Virus record (IMG/VR): IMGVR_UViG_3300021399_000014
Span: 2,566 to 66,565 of that record
DNA length: 64,000 bases
Direction: 5' to 3' (one strand)
DNA from: a virus
Taxonomy: Duplodnaviria; Caudoviricetes
The position numbers and the translations under genes were made by a program. Numbering within the stretch: position 1 is the stretch's first letter; every line of letters begins with the position of its first letter. This document shows, one piece after another, positions 7,007 through 30,830 of the stretch. Under the pieces are notes generated by a model. The model saw nothing but the letters and a program-made list of their open reading frames with translations, did not search any database and was not told the origin of the DNA.

Positions 7007-7100
7007 TCTATTCAGAGAGTCATCCATAATATTGGGTGACTCTCTTTTTTTCTTACCGTAGGAGGTATCGATTATATTCTGAAAGGAGACCAAATTGAGT

Positions 7101-8267: not shown

Positions 8268-8436
8268 GAAGAAATTAGGAAGACCTCCTCTCCCGGACGA
8301 AGATCGTAAAGGGACTTCTGTACGGGTTAGGCTTACTAATTCCGAGCTCGATGATGTTAAAAAGGAGGCTGAGGCTAACAAGGTCTCAGTCTCTGATTAT
8401 ATTCGAGAAAGGATTAAAGATAATGGAAAACACTAA
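8260..8436 (+). CDS. Ribbon-helix-helix (CopG/Arc-like) protein (not in ORF track)
   Basis: MTEKKLGRPPLPDEDRKGTSVRVRLTNSELDDVKKEAEANKVSVSDYIRERI; GGAGG RBS. Confidence 0.65.
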   Translation: MTEKKLGRPPLPDEDRKGTSVRVRLTNSELDDVKKEAEANKVSVSDYIRERIKDNGKH

Positions 8437-8584
8437 GTTTGTAAAATTTGACGAATACTGTAAGAAATGCGTGAATAAGGACACCGAGGAAAGCGATCCT
8501 TATAAGCCTTGTAACGACTGTTTGGCTGTACCAGCGAGAGAATATTCGGAAAGGCCAGTGAATTTTAAGGAGAAGACCAGGTAA
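8423..8584 (+). CDS. Small Cys-rich protein
   Basis: YCKKC...PCNDC putative Zn site; ATG 8423 after GAAAGGA. Confidence 0.55.
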   Translation: MENTKFVKFDEYCKKCVNKDTEESDPYKPCNDCLAVPAREYSERPVNFKEKTR

Positions 8585-8598
8585 CCGGTGATTATATT

Positions 8599-8616
8599 TT
8601 GCAGGTCCTAATATAG
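8599..8616 (+). promoter_or_regulatory. Degenerate phage promoter motif copy
   Basis: TTGCAGGTCCTAATATAG preceded by GATTATATT. Confidence 0.5.
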
Positions 8617-8651
8617 ATTAGTAAAAAGTCCAAATAAGAAAGGAGATTAAA

Positions 8652-9029
8652 ATGGACAAAACTATGCTGAAATTTAGGATTGAGGGACTCAAACGTAAGG
8701 CAAAAGAACTTGCGGAAAAAGTGGCGAAGGCAGTTAAGCAGGTCGCGCTCGCAGTCGTAGAGTTTGCTAAGAAGTACCCTCTTGAGTTTGCTACTATGTT
8801 GGTAGCAGCAGCTGGTGGAGGAATGAAGCTTATAAGGCGTCATGACAACCAGAAGGCTATCAAGGCAGAGGAAACCAAGAGAGAAAGGCAGATCTACGAC
8901 CGCAGCGAAGGTCACTACTGGACACTTAAGCGCAAGCCCAAAGCTGAAGAATGGGGCGAGATCAATTTCAGGAAGCGTAATGGTGAAGGCTATTACGAGA
9001 TCCTGACTGACATGGGACTTGTAGACTAA
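8652..9029 (+). CDS. Hypothetical protein with central hydrophobic helix
   Basis: RBS GAAAGGAG; FATMLVAAAGGG segment. Confidence 0.7.
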   Translation: MDKTMLKFRIEGLKRKAKELAEKVAKAVKQVALAVVEFAKKYPLEFATMLVAAAGGGMKLIRRHDNQKAIKAEETKRERQIYDRSEGHYWTLKRKPKAEEWGEINFRKRNGEGYYEILTDMGLVD

Positions 9030-9097
9030 TTATATTTAAGGAGTCATCCTACGTGGTGGCTCTTTTTATTTTTAGTGCTAGGAAAGGAGACATTTAA

Positions 9098-9370
9098 ATG
9101 AGGGCGTTTATTTGCGATTGGTGCGGGGACGCGTATAAACCTGAACCCATCTTAGTTTATGGTGGTTCACTGGCTGCTCAGCTTAAATTTAAGCAGGATA
9201 ACAAGCAGATAGAAGCTCCAATCGGCAGCGAAGCAATTCATATGAGTTGGAAAACGGAATATAGCGATTCGATTGCGGAACACTCGGGAAAAGTATATGA
9301 CATTTGTCCGAGTTGTGCCGAAGCGCTTAGAGATTTTATCAAAGGCAGGCAGAAAGGAGAACATAAATGA
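9098..9370 (+). CDS. Small Zn-finger protein (CxxC...CxxC)
   Basis: MRAFICDWCG...DICPSCA; same architecture as 16432..16701. Confidence 0.65.
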   Translation: MRAFICDWCGDAYKPEPILVYGGSLAAQLKFKQDNKQIEAPIGSEAIHMSWKTEYSDSIAEHSGKVYDICPSCAEALRDFIKGRQKGEHK

Positions 9371-10233
9371 AACTTAAAGACATTTTCACGCCTAAAGTAC
9401 TGAGCGGATTGGCAGTAGTTGGCGTAGTAGGAACAGCGGTATTGGCGGCTATGGAAGGAATGGCGTCCAAGGAAAAGATCCAGAAGATTAAGGAAGAGAT
9501 GCCCGAGGAGAAGAAAGAGAGTAAGCTGGCAGTATCCTCTTATTATGCTCCTCGTGTGGCCGGATGCTTCTGGAAGACGATCGTAGTAGGCGGAGTAACA
9601 ATTACTTGCATAGTCGCATCATGCTATCTTAGTGGACTTCAGCTTGCCGCTATGGCCGGTACAGTATCTTATCTTGTATCACAGAGGACAGCAATCGAGA
9701 AGGAGGTAAGTAAAATTCCGGGAGGCAAGGAGGCCCTGGATAAAGCTAAGAAGGAAGTAGCCAAGCTTACTGCCGAGAAGAAGATCGACGAAGCAGAAAA
9801 GAAGAAATCGCCATGGCTTATACAAACGATCGAAGAGACCGGCGAGGGAGAAGACATATTCATAGACGAATGGTCCGGGCGAGTCTTCAGATCGAGTCCT
9901 GAGGCGGTCAAAAAAGCCTGGGACAGTATAAACGCCAGAAGAGACGAGGGATTAGATCTTCCCTTTAGTGATGACGGCGACATGAATATTCCAGAAGCCA
10001 TACCCTATAATGATATTTTCATAGCGCTGAATCTCGAACCAAGCGGCATAGGCCATCAGTTTGGATACCCGGCAAATGATGATCTTTACAGCCATAGAGA
10101 AATCCCCTATGAGATTCAACGGCTTGAGTTCGACGACATGGACGAAAGTCAGAAAAAGAGATATGGCGAAGGAATCTATGTAGTACATATTCCGTCCGAC
10201 TACTATCCTATGGAGTGCTGGGCTGAATACTGA
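9367..10233 (+). CDS. DUF6353-like membrane-anchored protein, paralogue 1
   Basis: PKVLSGLAVVGVVGTAVLA N-terminal helix, second hydrophobic segment, soluble C-domain; family name from recall. Confidence 0.6.
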   Translation: MKLKDIFTPKVLSGLAVVGVVGTAVLAAMEGMASKEKIQKIKEEMPEEKKESKLAVSSYYAPRVAGCFWKTIVVGGVTITCIVASCYLSGLQLAAMAGTVSYLVSQRTAIEKEVSKIPGGKEALDKAKKEVAKLTAEKKIDEAEKKKSPWLIQTIEETGEGEDIFIDEWSGRVFRSSPEAVKKAWDSINARRDEGLDLPFSDDGDMNIPEAIPYNDIFIALNLEPSGIGHQFGYPANDDLYSHREIPYEIQRLEFDDMDESQKKRYGEGIYVVHIPSDYYPMECWAEY

Positions 10234-10240
10234 TCGAGAA

Positions 10241-10258
10241 ATACAGCTCCTATAATAG
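10241..10258 (+). promoter_or_regulatory. Phage early promoter motif copy
   Basis: ATACAGCTCCTATAATAG. Confidence 0.7.
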
Positions 10259-10299
10259 AAACTGATTATATTTGTTTTTATTAGAAAGGAGGAGAAATT

Positions 10300-10476
10300 A
10301 TGGTAACTTTATTGTCTATCTTGATGATAGCAGTTATAGTACTTGCTCTTGCCGGAGGGTTGATAGCATTCACCTTCGGAGCAATAGCGAGTTTTATTCC
10401 GCTAATGTTCAAATTAGGGACAATCGTGTTGCCTATATTACTGATTCTCGGCATTATAGGCGCTATGATCGGTTGA
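10300..10476 (+). CDS. 58-aa fully hydrophobic membrane protein (not in ORF track)
   Basis: MVTLLSILMIAVIVLALAGG...IIGAMIG*; GAAAGGAGG RBS. Confidence 0.6.
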   Translation: MVTLLSILMIAVIVLALAGGLIAFTFGAIASFIPLMFKLGTIVLPILLILGIIGAMIG

Positions 10477-10538
10477 TGCGACAAGAGGATTCGTATAGAG
10501 AGTACGGGTCCTCTTATATTTTTTAAAGGAGGTTTACT

Positions 10539-11342
10539 ATGAAATTTTCATGGCTTAAGAAAGCTGGTAATGTTATTAATGCCGGTGTGAAAGTAGTCGA
10601 TAAGTACGGACCGCAGATTATGGCTGTTGTAAGTACTGGCTGTTTCATCGGCTCGATTATATTCGCTGTAAAAGAGAGCCCTAAGGCAAGAGAGGCTCTT
10701 GAAGAGAAAGAAGAAGCTGGACAGGAGCTGAACATTCTTGAGAAGAGCGCAACAGTAGTATCCAACATGCCTTGGACGTTCGGTTTGGCCGGTGCTGGGC
10801 TTGGATTGCAGATCGGATGCTGGATTAAGGAATCGGCAAGAGTAGCGGCTATGACTGGCCTTATTGCTACTCAGGTTAAGGATAATGAGACCTTAATCGA
10901 AGCGGCCAAGCAGGTTGTAGGACCTGATAAGACCGAAGAGATCCTCCAGAAGAAAGAAGAGATCGTTATAGAGAACGATAAGAAGGAGCTGAGAGATACT
11001 TTCCTCAACTGGCAGTATTATCCGTTCCTCTTTCCTACTGGAGATGTTATCTGGATGACCTGGAGACAGTTCGACGAACGGCATCGAGACTGCATCAAAG
11101 ATCTGGCGTCGAATCAGGAGTTGTGTCTGTATGACTATATGTCTAACATGCACTCGCCTAATCCGGCACTTTTGGAACTCGGATGGTCGTGCGAAGGCTG
11201 CGGAACATCACCTGAAGATTATCTCAGATGGGCAGAGGAAGAACTCGATTATGACTATGACATGATTGAGTACAACGGCGATCCTAAGCTTCCCGGATTC
11301 AGAATTAGCTGGAAGAATAACCCGACTCCGCCTGTGGACTGA
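10539..11342 (+). CDS. DUF6353-like membrane-anchored protein, paralogue 2
   Basis: KYGPQIMAVVSTGCFIGSIIFAVKESPKA N-terminal motif. Confidence 0.6.
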   Translation: MKFSWLKKAGNVINAGVKVVDKYGPQIMAVVSTGCFIGSIIFAVKESPKAREALEEKEEAGQELNILEKSATVVSNMPWTFGLAGAGLGLQIGCWIKESARVAAMTGLIATQVKDNETLIEAAKQVVGPDKTEEILQKKEEIVIENDKKELRDTFLNWQYYPFLFPTGDVIWMTWRQFDERHRDCIKDLASNQELCLYDYMSNMHSPNPALLELGWSCEGCGTSPEDYLRWAEEELDYDYDMIEYNGDPKLPGFRISWKNNPTPPVD

Positions 11343-11357
11343 ACAGGTGTACGAGTT

Positions 11358-11375
11358 TTACAGGGTCTATAATAG
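11358..11375 (+). promoter_or_regulatory. Phage early promoter motif copy
   Basis: TTACAGGGTCTATAATAG preceded by GTGTACGAG. Confidence 0.65.
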
Positions 11376-11414
11376 GAACTTATGTTCAATGCCAAACGAA
11401 AGGAGAAAAAAATA

Positions 11415-11684
11415 ATGGCAACAATTATTGAAGATCTTAAAGGTAAAGTATCGGACATTAAGGACGCAAAGGATGAGGGCGAGAAGAACCCCACATCTGA
11501 GAATGGCGAAGGAACCGACAAGGAGGCCAAGAAGAAGGCAGCCGGAAAGATCGTTAAGAAAACGGTCGGGTATCTGCTTGCCGCACTCGCAGGAGCGGGA
11601 ACGGTATTTGTAGCTACCAGAGCGAAGAAAGACGATCAGGAGGCTGACGAAAGCGAGGCACCGGCGGAGGAAGAAGAAGCATAA
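11415..11684 (+). CDS. Small TM protein with acidic tail
   Basis: VGYLLAALAGAGTVFVA helix; tail DESEAPAEEEEA; RBS GAAAGGAG. Confidence 0.7.
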   Translation: MATIIEDLKGKVSDIKDAKDEGEKNPTSENGEGTDKEAKKKAAGKIVKKTVGYLLAALAGAGTVFVATRAKKDDQEADESEAPAEEEEA

Positions 11685-11742
11685 TCAGATGGAGGGAGTC
11701 AGACTTACTGGCTCTCTCCTTTTTTCTTTTTGGAGGTAGCGT

Positions 11743-12018
11743 ATGGCAGAACTGGACTTGGCAAGCCTGATTATATTTGTGCTTGGACTGATAGGCATTG
11801 TAATTGAACCGTGGAGCCCGCAGCCTATATGGATGGCTTGGTATGGCGGGTTATATTTCTGCATGCGTTTTACAGTCCATATTATAGTAACTGTAGTTAT
11901 GTCTAGAAAGGAGACAAAATATGTGGAACTTGAAAACAGTAAGAAAGGTCTGCGGAATCGTAGGCGCTATCTTCAGCGGAGTGATGGGAATCGCAGGAGG
12001 TTACATCGCCGGTTCTGA
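11743..12018 (+). CDS. Membrane protein (3' part overlaps the next gene)
   Basis: GGAGG RBS; two hydrophobic segments. Confidence 0.45.
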   Translation: MAELDLASLIIFVLGLIGIVIEPWSPQPIWMAWYGGLYFCMRFTVHIIVTVVMSRKETKYVELENSKKGLRNRRRYLQRSDGNRRRLHRRF

Positions 12019-12103
12019 AGCGGCACCTAAGGTACTTAAGGCCAAGAAGATCTGGGACGAGTTGAATTCCGAAGACGACTCTCCCGAAGATGTAACAGAG
12101 TAA
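11921..12103 (+). CDS. Small Gly-rich TM protein with acidic tail
   Basis: CGIVGAIFSGVMGIAGGYIAG; tail SEDDSPEDVTE; RBS GAAAGGAG. Confidence 0.65.
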   Translation: MWNLKTVRKVCGIVGAIFSGVMGIAGGYIAGSEAAPKVLKAKKIWDELNSEDDSPEDVTE

Positions 12104-12161
12104 CTGGATTAAAGGACTCGTGCTTAATGTGCGGGTCCTATTAAATTTTTAGGAGAAAAAT

Positions 12162-12809
12162 ATGGCTGAAGTAAAACTTGATGATGTGCTTGCCAACAAT
12201 AGCGATTCAGCAAGGCGAACTGAAGAGAACAAACCGCCGGCACCGACCGAAGAGTTCAATCCATATGTGGAAGAGCCTGTGTCCATGAGAAAGCCGAGTA
12301 TTATAGGACGCTTCATCGGTATGTTCGGGCTCGGAAGCAATTTTGAAGGCGCTGGTAGCATGGTTCTGCAGGAAGTAATCATTCCGACGATTATCGACGG
12401 ACTTAGAGACTCAATCTATGCAGCTACTGATTATATTCTTTATGGCGGTGGACAGAGAAGCATTGCTGGAGGCCGCAAAGGTAGTGGAAGGAAGAACGGG
12501 TATACAGCATACAGCCAGAAGAGCCAGCAGAGAGGTAACAACAGAAAAGGAAGCCCCTCAGCAAGCGCATATTACTTCACATTTGATATTCGGGCAGACG
12601 CTGAGAAGGTTCTTGAGCAGATGCGCGATGTATCGGACCAGAGAGACTTCGTAACGATCATGGACATGTTTGCGATCGCTAAGAGGCAGACCAGTAACTA
12701 TACCTATAACGATTGGGGATGGTACGATCTGCGGTCGGCTCTTGTGAGAAGAACTAATGACGGACGATATTATCTGGACCTCCCGAAACCGGTTCCGATC
12801 GAGGACTGA
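12162..12809 (+). CDS. Conserved hypothetical phage protein
   Basis: 215-aa ORF with RBS; C-terminal WGWYDL...YYLDLPKP pattern recalled from related phages. Confidence 0.7.
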   Translation: MAEVKLDDVLANNSDSARRTEENKPPAPTEEFNPYVEEPVSMRKPSIIGRFIGMFGLGSNFEGAGSMVLQEVIIPTIIDGLRDSIYAATDYILYGGGQRSIAGGRKGSGRKNGYTAYSQKSQQRGNNRKGSPSASAYYFTFDIRADAEKVLEQMRDVSDQRDFVTIMDMFAIAKRQTSNYTYNDWGWYDLRSALVRRTNDGRYYLDLPKPVPIED

Positions 12810-12812
12810 ATT

Positions 12813-12983
12813 ATGGTTTGCCCGTGTAAAGGCTGCGAAGTTAGAGAAGCTGGATGCCACGATAGGTGTCCAGCTTATTCTTTGTGGCGAGATGAACTTA
12901 AAGAAATAAAGGAGAAAATGGACTGGGAAAGAAAACTTGATTCTTTCTTCAGTGAACCCGAAAGATGGGTTGATCATATTTAG
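12813..12983 (+). CDS. Small Cys-rich protein (not in ORF track)
   Basis: MVCPCKGCEVREAGCHDRCPAY. Confidence 0.55.
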   Translation: MVCPCKGCEVREAGCHDRCPAYSLWRDELKEIKEKMDWERKLDSFFSEPERWVDHI

Positions 12984-12995
12984 GAGGTACACATA

Positions 12996-13769
12996 ATGTT
13001 TAATGCAAATAGAGTTAATGCAAAAACAATTAATAATCTGCGTGAGTTCGGCACTTCAATAAAAAACAAAACTTTCAACAATATTGAGGTTTTACGCAGT
13101 TCCTTTGACACATGTCGTTTTCGCAATATTCAAGCTATGGAACTGATGTTTGACTGGGACAGCTTTAACGACTGCTTTATCATCGATTGCTTTTTTCAAG
13201 AGTGTTACTTCGATAGATGCTCCTTCCATTTGTCTCATATAGTCAAAACGATTTTTAGAGGTGTGACATTTGAGAGCTGCAACTTCGCCGATAGCTGGCT
13301 CGGAGATATTGGAGAGTCGTTTTTTATAGGATGTCGCTTCGTGGACTGTATTTTTAGCAACGACTCGTCGATTGAAATGTTTCAAGAGTGCGAGTTCGTA
13401 CGTCCCCAAAAGTTGCCGTATATGTCAATGGCTTGTCCCGATGAAGGAGAGTTTATCGGATATAAAAAGGCGTACGCCAACGGAAAGTTCGTGATCGTAA
13501 CGCTTCGTATCCCAGCCGATGCAAAACGCTCTTCCGCTTTTGGGCGAAAATGCAGATGCAGCAAAGCTGAAGTTATAGCGATAGAAAGCGTAGATAACCC
13601 CGAATTATCAATAAACACCGCTTTCTCGTGTTATAGCGGTTCAGAAAATGAGATTGCCTATACTGTAGGCGAAACAGTGTACCCAGACCAGTTCGACGAA
13701 AACCGCTGGTTAGAGTGCAGTAGCGGAATACATTTCTTTATGAACAAAGAAGAAGCCATAAGGTACTAG
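12996..13769 (+). CDS. Pentapeptide-repeat protein with C-terminal DUF5758-like domain
   Basis: F-x4 periodic N-half (CFFQECYFDRCSF...); C-half GYKKA...LRIPADAKRSSAFGRKCRCSKAEV...CSSGIHFF. Confidence 0.7.
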   Translation: MFNANRVNAKTINNLREFGTSIKNKTFNNIEVLRSSFDTCRFRNIQAMELMFDWDSFNDCFIIDCFFQECYFDRCSFHLSHIVKTIFRGVTFESCNFADSWLGDIGESFFIGCRFVDCIFSNDSSIEMFQECEFVRPQKLPYMSMACPDEGEFIGYKKAYANGKFVIVTLRIPADAKRSSAFGRKCRCSKAEVIAIESVDNPELSINTAFSCYSGSENEIAYTVGETVYPDQFDENRWLECSSGIHFFMNKEEAIRY

Positions 13770-13778
13770 GAGGTAACT

Positions 13779-14063
13779 ATGGAAAGCGTATATGTCGGCA
13801 GGAAACTGTGCAGAGAAGTCATAAAAGCCGGGCGAGTGCTTCTTGACGTGGGCATTAACCCTAAAATCGGTTGCGAAGACAAGAACTATCAGCAGCTCGT
13901 AGAAGACGGGATGGATATGGAAACCGCTATGAAAGAAGCATCATTATATTCCAAGAACAAGAAAGCCTCTGATGGCGCAAAATACGCAGTTATATGCGAG
14001 ATCCTTGAACGGGCTAAGGCTCTTGTGGATGCTGGTATTAACCCGGAGATCGTGATGAGGTGA
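13779..14063 (+). CDS. Hypothetical protein
   Basis: AGGAGG RBS; internal repeat LxDxGINP twice. Confidence 0.65.
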   Translation: MESVYVGRKLCREVIKAGRVLLDVGINPKIGCEDKNYQQLVEDGMDMETAMKEASLYSKNKKASDGAKYAVICEILERAKALVDAGINPEIVMR

Positions 14064-14078
14064 GAAAGGAGACGACGA

Positions 14079-14744
14079 ATGACTAGAGAGGAAATGATAG
14101 AGACACTCAGTAACTATTGCCTGAATAGAAGTGACTGCGTGAGCTGTCCTATAAAGAAAATTACGGGAGTGATATGTAATAATGTCTTCAGCGAAATGAC
14201 GGATAAGGAACTTGAGGAACGGATGGCTCTTCTCGAAGCGGAAGAAAAAAGCGGTAAGCCCAAGGATGCATCGCATGATGAGGTTGCTAAGCAGATTATG
14301 AAATATCTGACAGGTACGGATAACCCTGAAGAAGCGGCCAAGCGGATTGTATTTGGAACAGACAATCAGCAAGCTAAAGCAGATGCAGGAAAAGCTCCTA
14401 TTAGTCTGGTGCCTATGGATATCGTGTGGGCAATCGCATGGATTCGCAAGTACGGCAACGAGAAATATGGCGATCCTGAAAACTGGAAGACCGTAGAACC
14501 GGAGAGGTATAGGGATGCTCTGATGAGACATCTTCTTCATTATATTTCCGATCCCAAGAGTATCGACGAAGAGTCCGGTTATCCTCACTTATGGCATGCG
14601 GCTTGCAACATGGCGTTTCTGATGAGTATGGATTACGGAGATCGCGTATATTCCGGAGATACATTTGAGTCGCTTAGATGGAATGGGATTGGCGAAACAC
14701 TAAGTCAAGGCTTTAAGGAGGGTCTCAGCAATGAAACTAACTAA
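14079..14744 (+). CDS. dATP/dGTP diphosphohydrolase-like (former DUF5664) domain fused to a Cys-rich N-terminus
   Basis: KADAGKAPISLVP...YGNEKYG..NW....YRDALMRHL...DEESGYPHLWHAACNMAFL signature. Confidence 0.75.
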   Translation: MTREEMIETLSNYCLNRSDCVSCPIKKITGVICNNVFSEMTDKELEERMALLEAEEKSGKPKDASHDEVAKQIMKYLTGTDNPEEAAKRIVFGTDNQQAKADAGKAPISLVPMDIVWAIAWIRKYGNEKYGDPENWKTVEPERYRDALMRHLLHYISDPKSIDEESGYPHLWHAACNMAFLMSMDYGDRVYSGDTFESLRWNGIGETLSQGFKEGLSNETN

Positions 14745-15183
14745 AGAGGAGGCCGTACGTTTGTTTCATGAGCAGTGGAGCGATATGCAGAAGGAGTTGG
14801 GAGATTGTCCGGACCCTTGCTCAAGACTAGAGTTCAAAAGGCACTGGTGCAAAACGCATTTTCCCGAGGAATCAATAAAAAATAATTGCTTTTTATGTGA
14901 GTATGCCTTCCATGTTGTTACTACCGACCGTTTTGAGTGCTATTCTTGTCCGATCGCTTGGCCTTTGGCCGGGGAGGGTATTATTCCTGATTGTGCTGTA
15001 CATATGTCGTATCTTTTGTCTCCTATTTCCGAGATCTTGGCGTTACCTGTTAGAGAGGAGGCGAGTTTTCTGTCCGCCAAGAATCCGGTAGATGTCGTGT
15101 ATCAAGAGCTCAAAAATATGCACGAAGAACTTAAGCAATATGAGGAAAAGGAGGTAGCAAATGACGCCAACAAGACTGTTTGA
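14731..15183 (+). CDS. Cys-rich hypothetical protein
   Basis: CFLCEY...CYSCPI motif; GGAGG RBS. Confidence 0.65.
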   Translation: MKLTKEEAVRLFHEQWSDMQKELGDCPDPCSRLEFKRHWCKTHFPEESIKNNCFLCEYAFHVVTTDRFECYSCPIAWPLAGEGIIPDCAVHMSYLLSPISEILALPVREEASFLSAKNPVDVVYQELKNMHEELKQYEEKEVANDANKTV

Positions 15184-15352
15184 AGTAGCTTGTGAGCAGG
15201 CGAAGGACATGATGGACCTTAAAGAGCTCACAGAAACGTATAAGAGAGTCGACTCAGGGGCTGTCGAGATGAAGCTCAAGAACGGGAACAAAGCCGTATT
15301 CCGAATCGACGGTAACAGCAAAAGAAAATATCTCATGTTTCAGTGGAAGTAG
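15161..15352 (+). CDS. Hypothetical protein
   Basis: AGGAGG RBS; ORF track. Confidence 0.6.
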   Translation: MTPTRLFEVACEQAKDMMDLKELTETYKRVDSGAVEMKLKNGNKAVFRIDGNSKRKYLMFQWK

Positions 15353-15360
15353 GAGAAAAA

Positions 15361-15603
15361 ATGAATAGCATAAAAGAATTATTTATGGCAACGGCCGAAG
15401 TTGTAGCTAGAATGGCGATAGCGATAGCAATGGTCGTTTGCATTATATTTTCTGTAGCCGTGATCGTAGCCTGCCCTATTCTTATAGTGGCGGGCTTATT
15501 TTTTGTAGTATGCCTGATAGCCCACATTACGTTCAGCTGGTATATTCCGGTGATGATAGGGTTAGCTATACTTGTATGCTTCGGACTGGCTACGTTGGAG
15601 TAG
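15361..15603 (+). CDS. Membrane protein
   Basis: Almost entirely hydrophobic after residue 15. Confidence 0.65.
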   Translation: MNSIKELFMATAEVVARMAIAIAMVVCIIFSVAVIVACPILIVAGLFFVVCLIAHITFSWYIPVMIGLAILVCFGLATLE

Positions 15604-15618
15604 AAAGGAGGATCTCTC

Positions 15619-15768
15619 GTGATGGGCGCAGAAGAGGCAATCGAAGTTCTGAAAGCATTAGAAGACTGGTTATATTTCAGTTCGATGAACGGAGGGTCAA
15701 AGATACAGAGAGAAGCCATTGAAGTGGCCATAACAGCTCTCGAGAAAAAAGTCGATAGGGAGGATTAG
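15619..15768 (+). CDS. Small helical protein (tandem pair with the next ORF)
   Basis: EEAIEVL...EAIEVAITALEKK; GAAAGGAGG RBS. Confidence 0.55.
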   Translation: MMGAEEAIEVLKALEDWLYFSSMNGGSKIQREAIEVAITALEKKVDRED

Positions 15769-15770
15769 AC

Positions 15771-15917
15771 ATGATGACTATAGAAGAGGCGATTGATCAG
15801 CTCGAAGAAGTGATGGATATCGCGCACGAAGGCAATCCGGTTTACATTAGCGAGGACGACGTCGAGGCAATCAGAATCGCCAAAGAAGCTCTTGAAGAGA
15901 AAGCGGGGTATAGATAA
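15771..15917 (+). CDS. Small helical protein (tandem pair with the previous ORF)
   Basis: EEAIDQL...EAIRIAKEALEEK; GGGAGG RBS. Confidence 0.55.
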   Translation: MMTIEEAIDQLEEVMDIAHEGNPVYISEDDVEAIRIAKEALEEKAGYR

Positions 15918-15918
15918 T

Positions 15919-16089
15919 ATGACTTGCATGGAATATTTGTTCGAAGTGAATGAGGTGATTACAGAAAATAATAATTTACTTCCCGAACAGCTGACCCAGC
16001 TATCCAATACGGCTTTTCTTAGGTCCATAGCCTATTCTCTTGCCGTGATCGCTGATAAGCTTGGCGAGTCGAAAGAAAATGAAAGCTGA
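15919..16089 (+). CDS. Hypothetical protein
   Basis: ATG 15919 one base after the previous stop; ORF track 15892..16089. Confidence 0.5.
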   Translation: MTCMEYLFEVNEVITENNNLLPEQLTQLSNTAFLRSIAYSLAVIADKLGESKENES

Positions 16090-16300
16090 CGAGCCTGATT
16101 ATGTCTACATGGCAATAACAAAAGACGAGTATGAACTTCCTATTGCAGTAGCTGACTCCGGGCCTGAGCTGTCAAGAATGCTTGGGCTCGAAGCAAACAC
16201 TGTTACACAACAGATATGGCATTGCGCTAAAAAGGGGTGGCGGTGTAAGTATAAGAAAGTTTATATCGGAGATGAAAGGAGCGATATATGTGGATCGTAA
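16079..16300 (+). CDS. Small phage protein, probable HTH
   Basis: YMAITKDEYELPIAVADSGPELSRMLG pattern common in Clostridia phages (recall). Confidence 0.6.
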   Translation: MKADEPDYVYMAITKDEYELPIAVADSGPELSRMLGLEANTVTQQIWHCAKKGWRCKYKKVYIGDERSDICGS

Positions 16301-16431
16301 CGCAGGACTACATTAAAGGTGAACTCTGGTACCTGGTAGTAAACACTAAAACCGGTGAGCAGAGGGGTAAGTTCGACTGGCAGGCCAGAGCACAGGAATT
16401 TGCGGATGAGCTGAATAGGGAGGCGGACTAG
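16288..16431 (+). CDS. Hypothetical protein (not in ORF track)
   Basis: GAAAGGAG RBS; MWIVTQDYIKGELWYLVVNTKTGEQRGKFDWQARAQEFADELNREAD*. Confidence 0.55.
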   Translation: MWIVTQDYIKGELWYLVVNTKTGEQRGKFDWQARAQEFADELNREAD

Positions 16432-16701
16432 ATGAAGGCGTATAAGTGCGGTATATGCGGAAGATATTTTGAGGACGAGCTGTTGCCTGCCGAAGAACGT
16501 ATTACGGCAAAAGGACATTATAGCATATGTTTATATTTGGAGACCAATACAGAAGACTATACGGTCATACACGACGACATATGTCCAGAATGCGCCGGAT
16601 ATATTACCACTGGGCTGATCGAAAAAGGCTGCTCCAATGAAAACGTGAGATATATATCTGCTGAATACCTTGCCGATCTTCGTAGCAAGATGCAAAAGTG
16701 A
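16432..16701 (+). CDS. Small Zn-finger protein (CxxC...CxxC)
   Basis: MKAYKCGICG...DICPECA; same architecture as 9098..9370. Confidence 0.65.
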   Translation: MKAYKCGICGRYFEDELLPAEERITAKGHYSICLYLETNTEDYTVIHDDICPECAGYITTGLIEKGCSNENVRYISAEYLADLRSKMQK

Positions 16702-16708
16702 TTATATT

Positions 16709-16726
16709 TTACAGGCCCTATAATAG
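16709..16726 (+). promoter_or_regulatory. Phage early promoter motif copy
   Basis: TTACAGGCCCTATAATAG preceded by GATTATATT. Confidence 0.7.
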
Positions 16727-16768
16727 AGTAGAAATGGGTCTACTCGGTTTTATTATAGGAGGTGTAAA

Positions 16769-16909
16769 ATGAAGGAATTCGTAATGGGAGCAGTTAAGAA
16801 CGTGGCTATGGCTGCATTAGGAGGCTTTGTTGTAGCAACAGGAATCTTCAATGTAGTGTACGGAACCATGATCTGTGCTCAGCCGTTTATGAATAATTCG
16901 GAAGATTAA
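16769..16909 (+). CDS. 46-aa hydrophobic peptide (not in ORF track)
   Basis: MKEFVMGAVKNVAMAALGGFVVATGIFNVVYGTMICAQPFMNNSED*; TAGGAGGTG RBS. Confidence 0.55.
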   Translation: MKEFVMGAVKNVAMAALGGFVVATGIFNVVYGTMICAQPFMNNSED

Positions 16910-17019
16910 TCCGAAAAAAACCGAGTAAAAACTGAATACTGAACAAAAAAGAGCTTTGGCAGGACGCTGGGGCTCTTTTTTCTTTTTCCTATTTATATTA
17001 AGAAGAAAGGAGATTAATT

Positions 17020-17313
17020 ATGAGGGAAGAGAATATGAGTTACGAATTCAAGAACATGGACGAAGCTAAAGGATTTGCCCTGCGGAGTATGCACGATCGG
17101 CATGGCGATGAGTACAAGAAGTCAGAGAGAACCAGCTTCGTCCTGTCATTAGCGTTCGAGGTTCTTACGTGTCTCAGTCTGGCCGGCGCTATGATCTTCA
17201 GCAATAGAGAAGGCTACTGGAGAGGCGTGAATACTCTTACCGGTGACAAATGGGAAGACGCAGTTCGCAGCGACGTCAAGGAAATGGGCGATACGATCAA
17301 GTACGACGACTGA
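17020..17313 (+). CDS. Single-TM hypothetical protein
   Basis: GAAAGGAG RBS; central hydrophobic helix. Confidence 0.65.
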   Translation: MREENMSYEFKNMDEAKGFALRSMHDRHGDEYKKSERTSFVLSLAFEVLTCLSLAGAMIFSNREGYWRGVNTLTGDKWEDAVRSDVKEMGDTIKYDD

Positions 17314-17320
17314 TTATATT

Positions 17321-17338
17321 TTACAGTTGCTCTAGTAG
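17321..17338 (+). promoter_or_regulatory. Degenerate phage promoter motif copy
   Basis: TTACAGTTGCTCTAGTAG preceded by GATTATATT. Confidence 0.5.
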
Positions 17339-26231: not shown

Positions 26232-26242
26232 GTGCACGTGTT

Positions 26243-26260
26243 TTACAATTCCTATAGTGA
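26243..26260 (+). promoter_or_regulatory. Phage promoter motif copy upstream of the nuclease-RNAP operon
   Basis: TTACAATTCCTATAGTGA preceded by GTGCACGTG. Confidence 0.55.
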
Positions 26261-26604: not shown

Positions 26605-27157
26605 CCATCGCCGTCTTAAGGGACAGCATGCGTTGTTCAGTCCATCGAATCCGTCATGGATTAGATATGACGCAGACAAAGTTCGATCATATTTGCAATC
26701 TATTGAAGCTAGAGCTCTTGGTACTAGACTTCATGACTACGCTTGTCAAAGCATCGAACTAGGACGAAAACTTCCGAGCAGACCGGCGGACACAATATCC
26801 CTTTATGTGAACGATGCCATCAAACTCGGAATGACACCAGAGCAATGCTTATATTATTCGCAGTATTGCTATGGTCACGCAGATGCTATTAAATTCGATC
26901 GTGGCACGATCAGAATACATGATCTTAAAACCGGCTCGCTTCCTGGCAAAATGGATCAGCTATTGATCTATGACGCTCTGTTCTGTCTCGAATATGGATA
27001 CGATCCGCATAGCATCAAGCACAATCTCAGGATTTATCAGTATGACGACATTAACGAAGTCACGCCGCATCCTGATGATATTGCAGAGTATATGGATCAG
27101 ATTATCAAGGTAGACGAGATCAAAACTGGCGCAATGGGGGAAGCGAATTATGAGTGA
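26579..27157 (+). CDS. Cas4-like / DUF2800-type PD-(D/E)xK exonuclease
   Basis: HALFSPS...GTRLHD...GHADAI...IHDLKTG...QLLIY motifs. Confidence 0.7.
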   Translation: MSSSILWNDHRRLKGQHALFSPSNPSWIRYDADKVRSYLQSIEARALGTRLHDYACQSIELGRKLPSRPADTISLYVNDAIKLGMTPEQCLYYSQYCYGHADAIKFDRGTIRIHDLKTGSLPGKMDQLLIYDALFCLEYGYDPHSIKHNLRIYQYDDINEVTPHPDDIAEYMDQIIKVDEIKTGAMGEANYE

Positions 27158-29957
27158 ATTATATTCTATATGGGAAGGCGAGTTCCTATCACATGAGGGT
27201 AAAGCTCATGACGAGAACCCTCCTGGACGAGGTTCTGGTAGATATGGCTGGGGTACTGGTGAACGAAAGTACCAGCATCTTCCTTGGGCGACCAAGGCTG
27301 GTATGGAAATAAAGCAGCTTCAAGCTGAAGGTCTAAAGATGAAGCAAATCGCAGCTGCTCTCGGGACGAGTCAGGCTAATCTGCGAAGGTGCTTAAGCAT
27401 AGACAAAGAGGCTCGCGACATTCGCGACAGGAACGAGCTCATCAGACTCAGGGATATCGAAGGCGTTACGTCTATGCGAGAAATGTCCAGGCGCACAGGC
27501 ATTCCTCTCACTACCGTGGGCAATCTCTTGAGAGAAAACACCCAGGCTAAGATAGAACGTAATGCTAAGTATATGGAGATTCTGCGTAAGCAGATTGAAG
27601 AGAAAGGGCATATCGACGTCGGAGCTGGGACTGAACATAACTTAGGCGTTAGCTCCACAAAGATGAACCAGCTGGTTAAGTCCCTTGCTGAAGAAGGCTA
27701 TGTACTGTCTCATCCTAAAGTGCCGCAGGCCGGAACCAGCTATGATACAAATATGCTCGTTCTGTCCAAGAAAGGTACGCCGAAGAATTATATTTATAAC
27801 CACATAGAAGATATTAAGACATTAGACGATCTTCATGTGGTGGACGACGGTAACGGTCCAAAAGAAGCTAAGTTCCATGATCCTAAGAGTATTGACTCAT
27901 CGAGAGTAGCTGTTAAATACAATGAGGAAGGCGGACTCGCTAAAGATGGACTAATTCAGTTAAGGCGTGGAGTTCCTGAACTTAATCTCGGCAACAGCAA
28001 CTATGCGCAGGTTCGTATTGCCGTTGACGGTACACATTACATTAAGGGAATGGCCGTCTATGGTGACGACGAAGACTTCCCGAATGGTGTCGACGTTCTC
28101 TTTAACACCAATAAGAAACTCGGCACTCCCATGATGGGCGCTAAAGACAACACTGTGTTCAAGCCGATCAAAGGTGAAGGACTTCAGGCATTTGGCGCTA
28201 CAATCAGAGACCAGAACGACTGGACTGATGAGAACGGTAAACACCATGAGGGTCTCGTAAACATTGTTAAAGAGCAGGGTGTATGGCATGAGCAGCAAAG
28301 AACGCTTGCCTCACAATTCTTGGCTAAGCAATCACATCAGCTGGCCAAGAAACAGCTTGACCTTGCTTACGCCGATAAAGAGAACGAGTTCAAGGAAATT
28401 CAGGCACTTGACAATCCCGTTGTTAAACAGCGCATGCTCCGGTCTTTCGCTGAAGAATGCGACGCTGCTGCTGTACATCTCAAAGCTGCGGCAATTCCGA
28501 GACAGTCATGGAACGTTATTATTCCAATGACCACTCTTAAAGATAACGAAATCTATGCTCCCGCCTATAAAGATGGCGAAGAGGTGGTCTGCATTCGTTA
28601 TCCTCACGGCGGTAAATTTGAACTTGTACAGCTTAAGGTCAATAACCGTAACAAAGAGGGCAAGAAAGTACTGGGTTCGGACGCCTTTGACGCCGTAGGC
28701 ATAGGCAAATCGTCTGCTGACAAGCTCTCTGGTGCTGACTTTGATGGCGATACAGTTCTTGTTATACCTAACCCTAAGAAGCCCACTAAAAATGGGAAAT
28801 ACAAGTATGAGATTTCTGTTAGAGACTCGCTCGAAGGACTCAAAGACTTTGATCCTAAGATAACTTATGGTGGCGTAGCTGAAAAAGACAGGATGACGAG
28901 CAAAAACACTCAGCGCCAGATGGGCATCATATCTAATCTTATTAGTGATATGACGATCCTTGGGGCCGATGATGATGAACTTGCCAGAGCAGTAAGACAT
29001 AGCATGGTCGTTATCGACGCTGAGAAGCACGGGCTTGATTACAAGCGGTCGTATAAAGACAACAAGATCGCTGAGCTCAAGAAGAAGTACCAAGGCGGCG
29101 GAGGCGTAGCGACACTTCTGTCTAGAGCCAAGAACCCCAGGTACGTGCCTGCCCGAGTCACCAACAACCCCTATGATATCGATGAAGAGACTGGCGAACG
29201 CATCTGGAATAACCAGAAAGAACGTAAGTACATCGATAAGGACGGGGTAGAGCGTACTATCAAGCCCCGCAACATCAAGACGTACTGGATGGATACTGTA
29301 TCTGATGCTCGAGAATTAATCTCCGATCGGAACACGGTAATAGAGAACGTTTACGCTAACTTTGCTAATGAGTGTAAGGCTTTGGCTAATCGTGCGCGCA
29401 AAGAACTCGTTCGTTCTAGTAAAGAGGAGCACCTTGAATACAGCAAGGAAGCAGCCAAGACCTATGCAAAAGAAGTAGAGGAGCTTAATCGCAAGCTTTT
29501 GACCGCACAGAAGAACGCGCCCAGAGAGAGGGCGGCGCAAAGATTAGCCAACCTCAGGGTAAAGGATGCGGTAGAGAATGCAAAGCTGAACGGAACCGAG
29601 CTGACTGATAGCGAGGTACGTAAGCTCCTTGCTAAACAGATTGAACCTGCCCGCAGAGAGGTGGGAGCTAAGAAAGAGCGGGTCAAGTTCACCGAACGTG
29701 AGTGGGAAGCAGTGCAGAAGGGGGCTATTCATCAGACCACCCTGGCCAAGCTTCTAAGCAATGCGGATGAGAAGAACTATAAGACCCTGGCTACCCCTAG
29801 AGACCAGCGTGGGCTGTCACAGTACAAGATCAACCGGATAAAGGGTATGCTAGAGGCCGGGGTAGATACCCGTACCATGCAGTGGATAGCCGACTACATG
29901 GGAGTGTCCCTGTCAACTATTGCTGCAGTCAAGTCTGGTAAATACGACAAGAAGTAA
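27150..29957 (+). CDS. Single-subunit two-barrel RNA polymerase (YonO / RdRP-like) with fused HTH domains
   Basis: RYPH (28596-28607), catalytic LSGADFDGD (28731-28751), GIISNLI and VIDAEK motifs; two N-terminal and one C-terminal HTH-like segments. Confidence 0.8.
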   Translation: MSELYSIWEGEFLSHEGKAHDENPPGRGSGRYGWGTGERKYQHLPWATKAGMEIKQLQAEGLKMKQIAAALGTSQANLRRCLSIDKEARDIRDRNELIRLRDIEGVTSMREMSRRTGIPLTTVGNLLRENTQAKIERNAKYMEILRKQIEEKGHIDVGAGTEHNLGVSSTKMNQLVKSLAEEGYVLSHPKVPQAGTSYDTNMLVLSKKGTPKNYIYNHIEDIKTLDDLHVVDDGNGPKEAKFHDPKSIDSSRVAVKYNEEGGLAKDGLIQLRRGVPELNLGNSNYAQVRIAVDGTHYIKGMAVYGDDEDFPNGVDVLFNTNKKLGTPMMGAKDNTVFKPIKGEGLQAFGATIRDQNDWTDENGKHHEGLVNIVKEQGVWHEQQRTLASQFLAKQSHQLAKKQLDLAYADKENEFKEIQALDNPVVKQRMLRSFAEECDAAAVHLKAAAIPRQSWNVIIPMTTLKDNEIYAPAYKDGEEVVCIRYPHGGKFELVQLKVNNRNKEGKKVLGSDAFDAVGIGKSSADKLSGADFDGDTVLVIPNPKKPTKNGKYKYEISVRDSLEGLKDFDPKITYGGVAEKDRMTSKNTQRQMGIISNLISDMTILGADDDELARAVRHSMVVIDAEKHGLDYKRSYKDNKIAELKKKYQGGGGVATLLSRAKNPRYVPARVTNNPYDIDEETGERIWNNQKERKYIDKDGVERTIKPRNIKTYWMDTVSDARELISDRNTVIENVYANFANECKALANRARKELVRSSKEEHLEYSKEAAKTYAKEVEELNRKLLTAQKNAPRERAAQRLANLRVKDAVENAKLNGTELTDSEVRKLLAKQIEPARREVGAKKERVKFTEREWEAVQKGAIHQTTLAKLLSNADEKNYKTLATPRDQRGLSQYKINRIKGMLEAGVDTRTMQWIADYMGVSLSTIAAVKSGKYDKK

Positions 29958-30249: not shown

Positions 30250-30830
30250 CTTGACCTCCTCCTTTAATACAAGACATAGTGTGATTATTATAGCTTTGTA
30301 TGCACTTGCTTTTACACATCTGTATGCAAAGCTATTGATTCACACTATAACGATCTTAACGTGTCTTTACAACACCATACTCACTGCACAAACCTTATTG
30401 TTATGCATACAGTTGCTTAAAGATATAGAATCAAACAAATTAATTTAGTTTCTTTTAGTATTTTAGTTATTAACAAACAGAATAAAAAGTATTTGACTTT
30501 GTTTTAATCTATTCAAAACAAAACTTTTTAACTAATTTAAACTATTTGTTTAATGTTTTTAAGTATTTTTGTTATATTGAATGGATTTTGTTTGTTTTTA
30601 ATCTCATTTAAAGGCAGAAATAGGTATAAACATGCTTAAAAACGAAGAAATTAAAAGATTTTCAATCAAAAATCCTTTTGCAGGCTTCAAAAAGCATACA
30701 AAACGCTCACCACTCTGGTCTATTTCGACAAAAAGAGGGTAGAGGGGGGTCCAAAAAATGCACACCCCCACCCATATCGCGCCCATCTTTATTTTTCCCC
30801 CGGAGGATTATATTTTCAAAACTTTCTAGT
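30250..30830. other. Non-coding AT-rich / G-C tract region, candidate genome end (cos/pac)
   Basis: No credible gene; very AT-rich 30420-30660; GGGTAGAGGGGGGT...CACCCCCACCC symmetry; lies just upstream of the terS/HNH/terL operon. Confidence 0.4.

Follow-up and report, generated by a model that had tools for sequence, protein, structure and literature searches.

The 64,000-nucleotide stretch of phage DNA analysed here (the window) encodes a 935-residue protein that, judged by its structural model and its conservation, appears to be a single-chain two-barrel DNA-dependent RNA polymerase whose DFDGD loop would bind the catalytic metal. The reading that we favour, and regard as rather likely, is that DNA-binding units fused to this enzyme read the phage's own promoters, a class (termed class I) represented by 21 copies in this genome.

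Family membership

By its sequence, the protein is a full-length member of a known family, PHROG 4291, to which orf75 of Lactococcus phage 1706 belongs. The profile match (E 3.7e-291) places residues 27-930 on profile positions 19-907 of 909, of 250 phage records with a match, 249 carry a full-length copy, there are over 7,200 matching metagenomic clusters, and isolate homologues share 35-45% identity over 93-94% of the length. The novelty implied by an earlier note on this DNA, made from the sequence alone, does not hold, because the family and its combination of helix-turn-helix (HTH) units with an RdRP-like core are already in print, in PHROGs and in RefSeq. Ruprich-Robert and Thuriaux (2010; PMC2919709) listed a '1706' family among the YonO-like proteins, Koert et al. 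(bioRxiv 10.1101/842583) reported an 'HTH domain-containing / putative RNA polymerase' as signature protein of an actinophage-Lactococcus-Faecalibacterium phage supercluster, and HTHs at both ends of the 1706 orf75 family were described in 2021. The published descriptions that we found are computational, and bench or biochemical data on a family member were not found in the literature.

Two other memberships were rejected. The YonO profile (phrog_8308, confirmed as the YonO family) matches locally (29.7 bits, E 4.4e-7, residues 459-817), which points to a sister family, and hhalign against a single YonO sequence gave no match. Pfam PF05183 (eukaryotic-type RdRP) matches residues 521-635 with 20.8 bits, under its gathering cut-off of 23.8; it matches 28 of 40 family members at E values of up to 0.01.

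Fold and catalytic residues

Structure prediction and Foldseek comparison recovered the two-barrel fold that the earlier note had proposed. The AlphaFold2 model of the entire chain (pLDDT 78.6, pTM 0.66) contains two double-psi beta-barrels (DPBBs), and Foldseek matched it to QDE-1 (E 8.7e-10) and to P74-26 gp62 and the phage 'P32' gp64 RNA polymerase (8f72; E 2e-7). VIA gave Z scores of 15.8 for ZmRDR2 (457 aligned residues), 15.3 for QDE-1 (381), 12.3 for gp62 (343), 8.0 for crAss gp66 (363) and 7.8 for P23-45 gp96, with the RDR2, QDE-1 and gp62 alignments beginning at residue 245. The region of the second barrel (443-650) reached Z scores of 9-10 against the largest subunits of Pol I, Pol II and bacterial RNAP and against designed DPBB proteins; alignments of this beta-prime type extend to about residue 650 and cover a helical hairpin that is probably the bridge-helix region. 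The best structural matches, RDR2 and QDE-1, are enzymes named as RNA-dependent.

The gene is the longest open frame at its site, and the RYPH, GADFDGD and VIDAEK motifs read from it by the earlier note are all present and invariant in the family. In an alignment of 40 sequences (44-77% identity), every member keeps R483, P485, H486, G528, A529, D530, D532, G533, D534, D623, K626 and H627, and the catalytic motifs are also invariant in isolates from two host phyla. The superfamily has an invariant R-x-P (Rpb1 R446/P448) in the barrel that bears DxDGD (PMC2919709), to which, from their position in the barrel, we infer R483 and P485 of RYPH to be equivalent. For the beta-like barrel, the superfamily criterion is one acidic and two basic invariant residues (Rpb2 D837, K979 and K987); barrel 1 of this protein has D266, G267, R272, Y285, Q287, V288, R289, K299 and K322 invariant in the family alignment. 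Of the features by which superfamily membership was tested, the two DPBBs, the DxDGD loop and R-x-P were found.

Fused DNA-binding units

Three HTH modules had been claimed (residues 62-80, 108-127 and 906-923). All three segments are supported, by Pfam matches that are weak in this protein, and the count proved too low because the model adds a winged helix and a three-helix unit at about residues 849-881. The model thereby suggests about five fused DNA-binding units: two N-terminal HTHs, the winged helix and two C-terminal HTHs. Near the N-terminus, Pfam places Sigma70_r4_2 at 59-79 and HTH_IclR/HTH_24 at 105-128 (weak matches), followed by a weak MarR_2 match at 165-185 within the winged helix, for which VIA returned Z scores of 8.3 (5aim, TFIIIC eWH, 86 aligned residues), 7.4 (Zalpha) and 7.0 (BlcR, IclR-type). 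The last C-terminal unit is an HTH of the sigma-region-4 or resolvase type (HTH_7, HTH_38 and Sigma70_r4 at 887-925), and a PDB profile search likewise matched this end to HTH proteins. Across the family these HTH families recur in 31-39 of the 40 members (HTH_23 in 39, Sigma70_r4_2 in 38, HTH_38 in 36), those of the C-terminal end in 31-36.

The chain opens with a leader (pLDDT below 50) in which H15, G17, R27, S29, G30, R31, Y32 and G37 are invariant, the actinophage and Lactococcus 1706 homologues included. A search of this genome for a second leader copy gave no statistically significant match.

Table 1. Features of the polymerase locus and of the class-I promoters (positions in the window)
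Feature	Residues	Position (nt)	Strand	Remarks
Class-I promoter copies (19)		987, 1729, 2061, 2349, 2817, 3227, 3497, 4178, 4613, 4775, 5470, 6079, 6700, 8599, 10241, 11358, 11870, 16709, 17321	+	region 987..17338
One further class-I copy		73 nt ahead of window start	+	
Class-I copy of the polymerase operon		26233..26260	+	TG-N8-TTACAA-N4-TATAGT; ahead of endonuclease-exonuclease-polymerase-p92
VRR-Nuc-type endonuclease		26317..	+	probable ATG start; phrog_93 / phrog_3953 matches for this and the next gene
Cas4-type exonuclease		26579-27157	+	co-transcribed upstream of polymerase
Polymerase gene	935 aa	27150..29957	+	PHROG 4291 / phage 1706 orf75 family; ATG start
N-terminal leader	1-48	27150..27293	+	L-x-H-x-G ... 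R-x-SGRY-x-x-G-x-G; predicted disordered
Two HTH units (about 49-80, 105-127)	49-127	27294..27530	+	long helix between; Pfam, model
Winged-helix domain	134-222	27549..27815	+	structural matches
First DPBB (beta-subunit-like)	245-380	27882..28289	+	model strands
Second DPBB (beta-prime-like)	446-560	28485..28829	+	holds RYPH and metal loop GADFDGD
RYPH	483-486	28596-28607	+	
GADFDGD	528-534	28731-28751	+	
Helical hairpin past catalytic barrel	584-648	28899..29093	+	helices 584-603, 608-627; holds VIDAEKH
VIDAEK	621-626	29010-29027	+	VIDAEKH is 621-627
Two C-terminal three-helix units	845-930	29682..29939	+	model, Pfam
p92 (phrog_4303)	92 aa	29970..30248	+	acidic; directly after polymerase; candidate partner
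cos-like right genome end		30735..30788	+	G-run, about 10 nt, C-run, then ATCGCGCCCATCT

A promoter class that accompanies the polymerase gene

The class-I motif consists of T-N3-CA, 4 nt, TTACA, 5 nt and TATAAT, about 32 bp in all, with the three boxes spaced about one helical turn apart. Its 21 copies all lie on the gene strand and precede early and middle genes and the polymerase's own operon, sitting 15-60 nt upstream of the ribosome-binding sites of successive small genes. A pattern search of this genome yielded 20 matches against 2.1 expected, and a PWM scan separated 21 sites, all on the + strand, with scores of 29-43 (35 for one site outside the training set) from a next best of 17.4. 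The promoter motif that the earlier note had placed at 26243 does belong to this class: it scores 30.4, against 17.4 for the best non-member, with a PWM whose training set included this copy, and it also departs from the core pattern at a single position.

Of 11 other phage genomes with the polymerase (from Arthrobacter, Streptomyces, Gordonia, Rhodococcus and Lactococcus phages and uncultured ones), at least 10 carry this motif with identical spacing, on the gene strand. Lactococcus phages 1706 and CHPC971 have about 12 matches each and Arthrobacter phage Correa 7 sites; the motif was likewise found in further isolates (Arthrobacter Gordon 9/0, Streptomyces Bing 6/0, Gordonia Petito 10/0, ReqiPepy6 5/0). 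Among the uncultured relatives, G001 has 13 gene-strand matches against 0 in the control, G003 and G004 have 4-5, which are clustered, and G002 is modestly enriched (5 forward against 0 in the control, with 4 on the reverse strand). Neither the motif nor the polymerase gene was found in four phages of these host genera that served as controls. Furthermore, of the proteins that are conserved throughout the five isolate genomes, the polymerase alone has HTH or transcription-type domains. This joint presence across two host phyla, and joint absence from the controls, favours the sigma-independent promoter recognition suggested by the earlier note, and the polymerase itself probably reads the class-I promoter. 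A class-I promoter stands ahead of the polymerase operon both in this phage and, at the equivalent position, in relatives, so autoregulation of the gene through its copy is plausible.

An alternative that we consider unlikely is that the 21 promoters are served by the host RNAP and its primary sigma factor, and that the phage enzyme, not carried in the virion and the last to be made, transcribes only the structural operon, from an unrecognised promoter close to the joined cos ends, following the logic of T7 or of YonO in SPbeta. The TATAAT box is indeed a perfect sigma-70-type -10 hexamer, and it could still be a host sigma -10 element, with another factor reading TTACA. However, the gap between TTACA and TATAAT is 5 nt, where a -35 box would need 16-19 nt; no conserved -35 element was found at the class-I promoters, sigma-70-like matches near the polymerase gene are about as many as chance predicts (26, with 25.7 expected), and the whole motif is kept from Streptomyces to Lactococcus hosts and missing from those hosts' other phages. 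The late-only alternative also draws on the absence of class-I promoters from the late (structural) half of this genome and from the structural arm of the relatives, and on the place of the polymerase gene, the last but one in the early-to-middle direction and, with the ends joined, directly ahead of the late operon. YonO, too, reportedly transcribes late SPbeta genes. Against it, the spacer between p92 and terS holds no conserved second promoter in 23 non-redundant relatives, where cos-like and anti-SD-like elements were the only ones seen.

Operon neighbours and the genome end

The order endonuclease, exonuclease, polymerase and small protein at the right genome end is that of the family, in agreement with isolate annotations; of 81 loci, 77 have an endonuclease homologue and 78 an exonuclease homologue ahead of the polymerase gene. 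For the endonuclease, the ATG at 26317 is the probable start, having GGAGA 6 nt upstream, whereas the GTG at 26257 overlaps the promoter. The 92-aa gene that the earlier note saw after the polymerase is real, has a homologue at 62 of 81 loci and always comes next after the polymerase; p92 as an accessory subunit is suggested by this strict co-conservation and, weakly, by the score of a complex prediction with the polymerase.

The sequence homologous to this cos-like end forms the physical right end in isolate relatives, and the terminus of ReqiPepy6 is annotated as a 3' cos overhang. The polymerase gene lies mid-record because the assembly is circularly permuted. The second template motif of the earlier note, CCCCGG-AGGATT, is unsupported as such because it occurs once and adjoins this end: CCCCGGAGGATT is unique in the genome, and its near-matches are at chance (4 found, 3.2 expected).

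Proposed transcription programme

In the mechanism that we propose, the two double-psi beta-barrels (245-380 and 446-560) would form the active site, and the fused DNA-binding units would read the phage-private promoter of about 32 bp without a sigma factor. Transcription would probably begin at purines after TATAAT, in a T7-like layout, and the last class-I copy would drive the endonuclease-exonuclease-polymerase-p92 operon, creating positive feedback. The late half, which is devoid of class-I copies, might be served by the host RNAP, by transcription running on through the joined cos ends or by a p92-dependent change of specificity.

At the start of the cycle, the enzyme may be carried in the virion and injected, a suggestion to which we give somewhat less than an even chance. 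The depositors of GenBank EU081845 label 1706 orf75 a 'structural protein', which makes virion delivery possible; the gene itself lies far from the morphogenesis genes. The record of ReqiPepy6 repeats the label of the 1706 homologue, and the invariant leader peptide has been counted as a hint in the same direction. A fully self-contained system, with a virion-borne enzyme delivered via its leader, all early and middle transcription started by the private promoter, and p92 as modulator, is a more tentative proposal still.

It is very improbable that the enzyme is instead an RNA-dependent RNA polymerase, making double-stranded or antisense RNA from transcripts of the phage or the host, whether for regulation or counter-defence. 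The top structural matches, the local Pfam match (seen in family members also) and the RdRP name used by RefSeq and PHROGs would suit such a role. However, the Pfam score falls under the cut-off, about five units of a dsDNA-binding type make little sense on an RNA template, and the co-inheritance of a DNA motif with the gene points to DNA templates. Moreover, QDE-1 has DNA-dependent activity too (PMC9508822), and the solved phage members of this clade are described as promoter- or DNA-dependent transcriptases (PMC10770324; PMC5467207). Also very improbable is a role in replication, as a transcription-type primase or an activator of origins, with the motifs as priming sites or origins: the gene does come last in a conserved block that also holds PolB-primase, helicase, endonuclease and exonuclease, but a primase-polymerase is already present (1359-aa ORF, 20384-24463; Correa homologue annotated 'DNA primase/polymerase'), and motifs just ahead of ribosome-binding sites, always on the coding strand, form a promoter pattern.

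Comparison with known systems

To our knowledge, work on single-chain two-barrel RNA polymerases covers only a few enzymes (YonO, phi14:2 gp66, and P23-45 gp64 and gp96); we know of none among them with built-in sigma-like DNA-reading modules, and none was found described in the literature. YonO of the Bacillus prophage SPbeta is likewise a phage one-polypeptide two-barrel enzyme of about 100 kDa, but it lacks full-length homology to the polymerase described here. We are aware of neither fused HTH arrays, nor an N-terminal leader, nor a comparable conserved private promoter in YonO. It is a single-chain two-barrel DNA-dependent RNA polymerase (PMC5467207). The non-virion P23-45 gp64 / P74-26 gp62, together with P23-45 gp96 and phi14:2 gp66, fall into the same major clade and are phage transcriptases with two barrels in a single chain (PMC10770324). 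Of these, gp96, fused to the tape-measure protein, and gp66, a multidomain protein of 2,180 residues in the crAss-like phi14:2, are virion-delivered, as the present polymerase may be; none is described with fused HTH arrays, and sequence similarity to it is undetectable past the catalytic loop.

QDE-1 and RDR2 (PF05183) match the model over both barrels and the clamp helices and have the DxDGD loop in common with it, but they are eukaryotic enzymes at 10-14% identity that act in RNA silencing and have no HTH modules; RDR2 works on RNA templates. T7 RNA polymerase is a functional analogue only, being a sigma-independent, promoter-specific single chain of an unrelated (right-hand, Pol-I-like) fold. 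The T7 promoter is compact, with a TATA element directly before a purine-rich start, and resembles the layout envisaged here.

The family is very large, with members in 250 sequenced phages and in metagenomic clusters that number in the thousands; common gut phages and SEA-PHAGES actinophages are among its carriers. If its polymerase reads the class-I promoter, the pair would constitute a compact, host-independent transcription system of the cellular RNAP fold, would show how a minimal two-barrel enzyme can incorporate promoter recognition, and would be a candidate tool for orthogonal expression in Gram-positive bacteria. The promoter would then have changed very little as the phage lineage passed between Firmicutes and Actinobacteria, and expression independent of host sigma factors could help to explain this cross-phylum spread. 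The pairing makes the question testable in cultured phages already in collections.

The 1706-family isolates share with this phage the HTHs at both ends, the DxDGD core, the invariant leader, the gene order by the right cos end and the promoter motif. Differences are at the lineage level only: the host here is an uncultured gut bacterium, and the upstream promoter box reads TG(T/A)(A/T)(C/T)A, as opposed to TCGCA or CCACA in relatives.

The polymerase gene and its predicted fold

The window (bases 2566-66565) is a nearly complete copy of the 66,565-bp virus record, with nearly all of its long frames on the + strand. ORF 27150-29957 encodes a product of 935 residues, which the earlier note had described as a single-chain two-barrel RNA polymerase with three fused HTH modules; the motifs quoted there (RYPH, GADFDGD and VIDAEK) and the HTH-like segments are all found in this frame. 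In an alignment of 40 homologues (44-77% identity), R483, P485, H486, D623, K626, H627 and every residue of G528-D534 except F531 are invariant, F531 being >90% conserved.

An AlphaFold2 model built from the 40-homologue alignment (mean pLDDT 78.6, pTM 0.66) gives the domain order listed in the table below. When this model was compared with the PDB using Foldseek, the top match was QDE-1 (E 8.7e-10), followed by Thermus phage P74-26 gp62 and the phage 'P32' gp64 RNA polymerase (8f72), each at E 2e-7, and then by plant RDR2. An independent all-against-all structural search placed ZmRDR2 at Z 15.8 (457 residues aligned, model range 245-887), QDE-1 at 15.3 (381 residues), gp62 at 12.3 (343 residues), crAss-like phi14:2 gp66 at 8.0 (363 residues) and P23-45 gp96 at 7.8. 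Residues 443-650 match, at Z 9-10, the double-psi barrel found in the largest subunit of Pol I and Pol II and of the bacterial, archaeal, vaccinia and ASFV enzymes. The absence of a two-barrel fold had been named as evidence against the proposed reading; the model and its matches to QDE-1, RDR2, gp62 and gp66 predict that the fold is present.

A sequence-profile search of the PDB with the polymerase returned HTH proteins only and did not find the polymerase core. HTH families match 31-39 of the 40 homologues and the model contains further units of this kind, so that the proposed HTHs stand while their number, three, is too few. The core interpretation of a single-chain two-barrel RNA polymerase with fused HTH modules is upheld by the model, the structural matches and the conserved motifs.

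Features of the polymerase (residue numbers) and of the DNA (window positions, unless a locus of a relative is named)
Feature	Location	Remarks
Leader	residues 1-48	conserved, disordered (model)
Two HTH units	residues 49-127	model
HTH-like segments	residues 62-80, 108-127, 906-923	
Winged helix	residues 134-222	model; Z 7-8.3 to eWH, Zalpha and IclR-type folds
Beta-like barrel	residues 245-380	model
Helical connector	between beta-like and beta-prime-like barrels	model
Beta-prime-like barrel	residues 446-560	model
RYPH	residues 483-486	
GADFDGD	residues 528-534	
Helical hairpin with VIDAEKH	residues 584-648	model
VIDAEK	residues 621-626	
Beta-rich insert and long helices	between hairpin and C-terminal units	model
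Two C-terminal three-helix units	residues 845-930	model
20 class-I sites	-73 to 17321 (+)	early and middle region, 15-60 nt 5' of ribosome-binding sites
ATTATATT copies matching the upstream box	987, 3497, 4178, 6700, 8599, 16709, 17321	plus a near-copy 73 nt before the window start
21st class-I site	26243 (+)	immediately 5' of the endonuclease-exonuclease-polymerase-p92 operon; linked to the polymerase gene in the earlier note
Cos-like right-end element, homologous	30735-30788	puts the physical genome end ~540 bp after the p92 gene
Cos-like right-end element, relatives' loci	L086 4640-4692; ends of L083, L084, L085, L088	also at the ends of many uncultured loci

Placement in a described family

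PHROG 4291, annotated as 'RNA-dependent RNA polymerase', matches the polymerase over its full length (E 3.7e-291). A tblastn search retrieved 250 phage records, 249 of them at full length and 35-45% identity, from phages of Arthrobacter, Gordonia, Streptomyces, Rhodococcus, Curtobacterium and Microbacterium as well as 1706-group Lactococcus phages, Faecalibacterium phages and human-associated siphovirus contigs. Matches also extend to more than 7,200 metagenomic 90% clusters. In phage records these homologues are labelled 'HTH DNA-binding domain protein' or 'RNA-dependent RNA polymerase'.

The 'phage 1706' family was listed among YonO-like two-barrel proteins by Ruprich-Robert and Thuriaux 2010 (PMC2919709), while Koert et al. 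(bioRxiv 10.1101/842583) reported that the 'HTH domain-containing protein' of the supercluster to which these phages belong gives an HHpred match to PF05183 and has a DxDGD loop with HTHs at both ends, and proposed an RNA polymerase activity for it. With the family already in print, this gene adds one more member to it, its product being a predicted enzyme. Our literature searches found neither bench or biochemical work on the PHROG 4291/1706 orf75 family nor a description of the class-I promoter.

The relationship to YonO is, as judged from sequence, distant: phrog_8308, verified as the YonO family, matches the polymerase only locally (E 4.4e-7), and hhalign could not significantly align the polymerase family profile with the one YonO sequence. 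The Pfam RdRP match is likewise local and under the cut-off. What is added here is a pairing of promoter and polymerase, assessed with controls and open to direct test, together with the placement at a cos end, a co-conserved small partner and a hint of virion association.

A class-I promoter in this genome

The element TTACA-N5-TATAATAG occurs 20 times at no more than two mismatches, against 2.1 expected, and alignment of the sites adds an invariant TG ten bases 5' of TTACA, within an upstream box that reads TG(T/A)(A/T)(C/T)A. A weight matrix applied to the whole genome returned 21 sites, all on the + strand, with scores of 29-43; one site that was not in the training set scored 35, and the best non-site position 17.4. 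The same scan found no class-I site in the late half. Since TTACA lies only 5 nt from TATAAT, this is not a promoter of the -35/-10 type, and its three boxes, spaced ~10 bp apart, would lie on the same face of the helix. A scan for sigma-70-type promoters around the polymerase gene gave 26 matches against 25.7 expected and is thus uninformative.

In eight of its copies (979-17321, counting one near-copy), the 8-mer ATTATATT is simply the upstream box TGATTATATT; copies within genes fall outside this account. The listed GTG start of the VRR-Nuc-type endonuclease (26257-26604), at 26257, overlaps the promoter, and the ATG at 26317, with GGAGA 6 nt 5' of it and a product of ~95 aa, is the more likely start. 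The sequencing runs that contain this stretch are gut-metagenome DNA from a single study, with no RNA run listed.

The promoter and the polymerase across phages

The core recurs at an unchanged spacing in relatives, oriented with the genes and concentrated where the early region begins. In G001, the closest uncultured relative, there are 13 matches, against 0 for a reversed-pattern control; two others (G003 and G004) have matches on the gene strand, and a fourth (G002) shows only a modest enrichment. Among isolates, forward and reverse matches number 6 and 0 in Streptomyces phage Bing, 10 and 0 in Gordonia phage Petito, 5 and 0 in Rhodococcus phage ReqiPepy6, and 9 and 0 in Arthrobacter phage Gordon. 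Lactococcus phages 1706 and CHPC971 have ~12 sites each, and Arthrobacter phage Correa has seven, one of them directly 5' of the endonuclease gene, a position where Bing, Petito and ReqiPepy6, like many uncultured relatives, have degenerate copies. Four control phages from these host genera, namely Lactococcus sk1 and TP901-1, Streptomyces phiC31 and Gordonia GTE2, lack both the motif and the polymerase gene.

An alignment of sites from the different lineages gives T-N-C-(G/A)-C-A, 4 nt, TTACA, 5 nt, TATAAT or TATAGT, then GAGA or AGAA. This layout is similar to that of T7-type promoters, and by analogy transcription may start directly after TATAAT. In the early regions of Bing, Petito and ReqiPepy6 (loci L102, L105 and L109), the leader GAGACCCCTAYGAAAG, with a ribosome-binding site at its end, comes after every copy of the promoter; many early genes thus share a cassette of promoter and 5' UTR.

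Of this phage's proteins, all five complete isolate genomes examined share the primase-PolB, a 178-aa protein, helicase, endonuclease, exonuclease, polymerase, p92, a terS-like protein, HNH, TerL, portal, protease-capsid, connectors and tail proteins. Within this set, a DNA-reading or transcription-type domain is present in the polymerase alone. Retention of the promoter from Lactococcus to Streptomyces phages, and its absence from other phages of the same hosts, is, on comparative grounds, best explained by a co-inherited reader, for which the polymerase is the sole candidate found.

The 178-aa protein (24481-25017), encoded between the polymerase-primase and the helicase and found in 5/5 isolate genomes from both phyla, has an acidic tail and may on that account be a single-strand-binding protein. 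The DNA of Correa (L083, whole locus) is 45% G+C, and the G+C content of its host is well over 60%. Host-independent transcription would fit this divergence, because an AT-rich promoter stays usable. Divergence in %GC between phage and host has been reported for this phage group by Koert et al. (bioRxiv 10.1101/842583).

The start of the infection cycle

Since the private promoter precedes the polymerase operon as well as all the early operons, some factor has to prime the system. In Lactococcus phage 1706, both orf75 (the homologue of the polymerase) and orf71 were labelled 'structural protein' by the depositors; the two genes lie far from the morphogenesis genes, and the ReqiPepy6 record repeats this label. 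The virion proteins of phage 1706 were reportedly identified by SDS-PAGE and LC-MS/MS (work of Garneau et al. in 2008). The N-terminal leader of the polymerase, predicted to be disordered, is invariant from actinophages to this phage, which would fit a packaging or interaction signal.

An HMM of the leader detected no further significant copy in this genome, and the two 'cargo' genes (32529 and 33677) reached only E ~3, over the L-x-H-x-G part. A leader shared across phage proteins is therefore statistically unsupported, although within the polymerase family the leader is invariant. With the 'structural protein' label and the invariant leader set against this result, delivery of the polymerase in the virion appears possible, falling somewhat short of probable.

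The p92 protein as a candidate partner

A homologue of p92, the 92-aa product of the gene following the polymerase, comes after the polymerase in 62 of 81 uncultured loci, and several of the remainder stop short of it. The same arrangement is seen in 68 isolate genomes, all of polymerase-bearing lineages, where the p92 gene is always the last; a homologue is also found in each of the five complete genomes examined. The complex of polymerase residues 49-935 with p92 was predicted with alignments for both chains and scored 0.44 (runs of 0.44, 0.58 and 0.44), the best of three controls scoring 0.00. Of 80 solved complexes, 58 attain the pass mark, as do 2 of 110 mismatched pairs; passing scores of 0.60 or lower comprise 7 of the 80 solved complexes and both of those mismatched pairs. 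At least 68% of contacts agree between runs, with a partner pLDDT of at least 79. The prediction thus supports a complex weakly, and the accessory subunit envisaged in the earlier note is better described as a plausible candidate partner than as an established subunit.

The genome end and the late-operon spacer

In isolates, and likewise in many uncultured contigs that are linear, no gene follows the polymerase and the small gene, and the DNA ends in a conserved right-end element, comprising a G-run, ~10 nt, a C-run able to pair with the G-run, and then TGCATCGCCGSCCT (an ATCGCC-type tail), which is annotated in ReqiPepy6 as the 3' cos overhang and is conserved from Lactococcus and gut phages through to actinophages. 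Its homologue in this genome makes the polymerase and p92 the rightmost genes of the packaged DNA. At bases 1-121 and 66445-66565 the record has a 'direct terminal repeat', an exact overlap of 121 bp within coding-like sequence; rather than a terminal redundancy or physical end, it is the assembly closure of a cos-type genome.

CCCCGGAGGATT was discarded as a repeated template motif, since its one exact copy is at 30798, just past the cos-like element, and near-matches are no more frequent than expected by chance. The p92-terS spacers of 23 relatives, searched for a conserved late promoter, yielded no class-I site, only the cos-like G/C runs and TCTCCTTTC. The latter precedes the late operon in 18-21 of the 23 non-redundant relatives (30901-30911 in the window), and its sequence is complementary to the GAAAGGAGA ribosome-binding sites of this phage.
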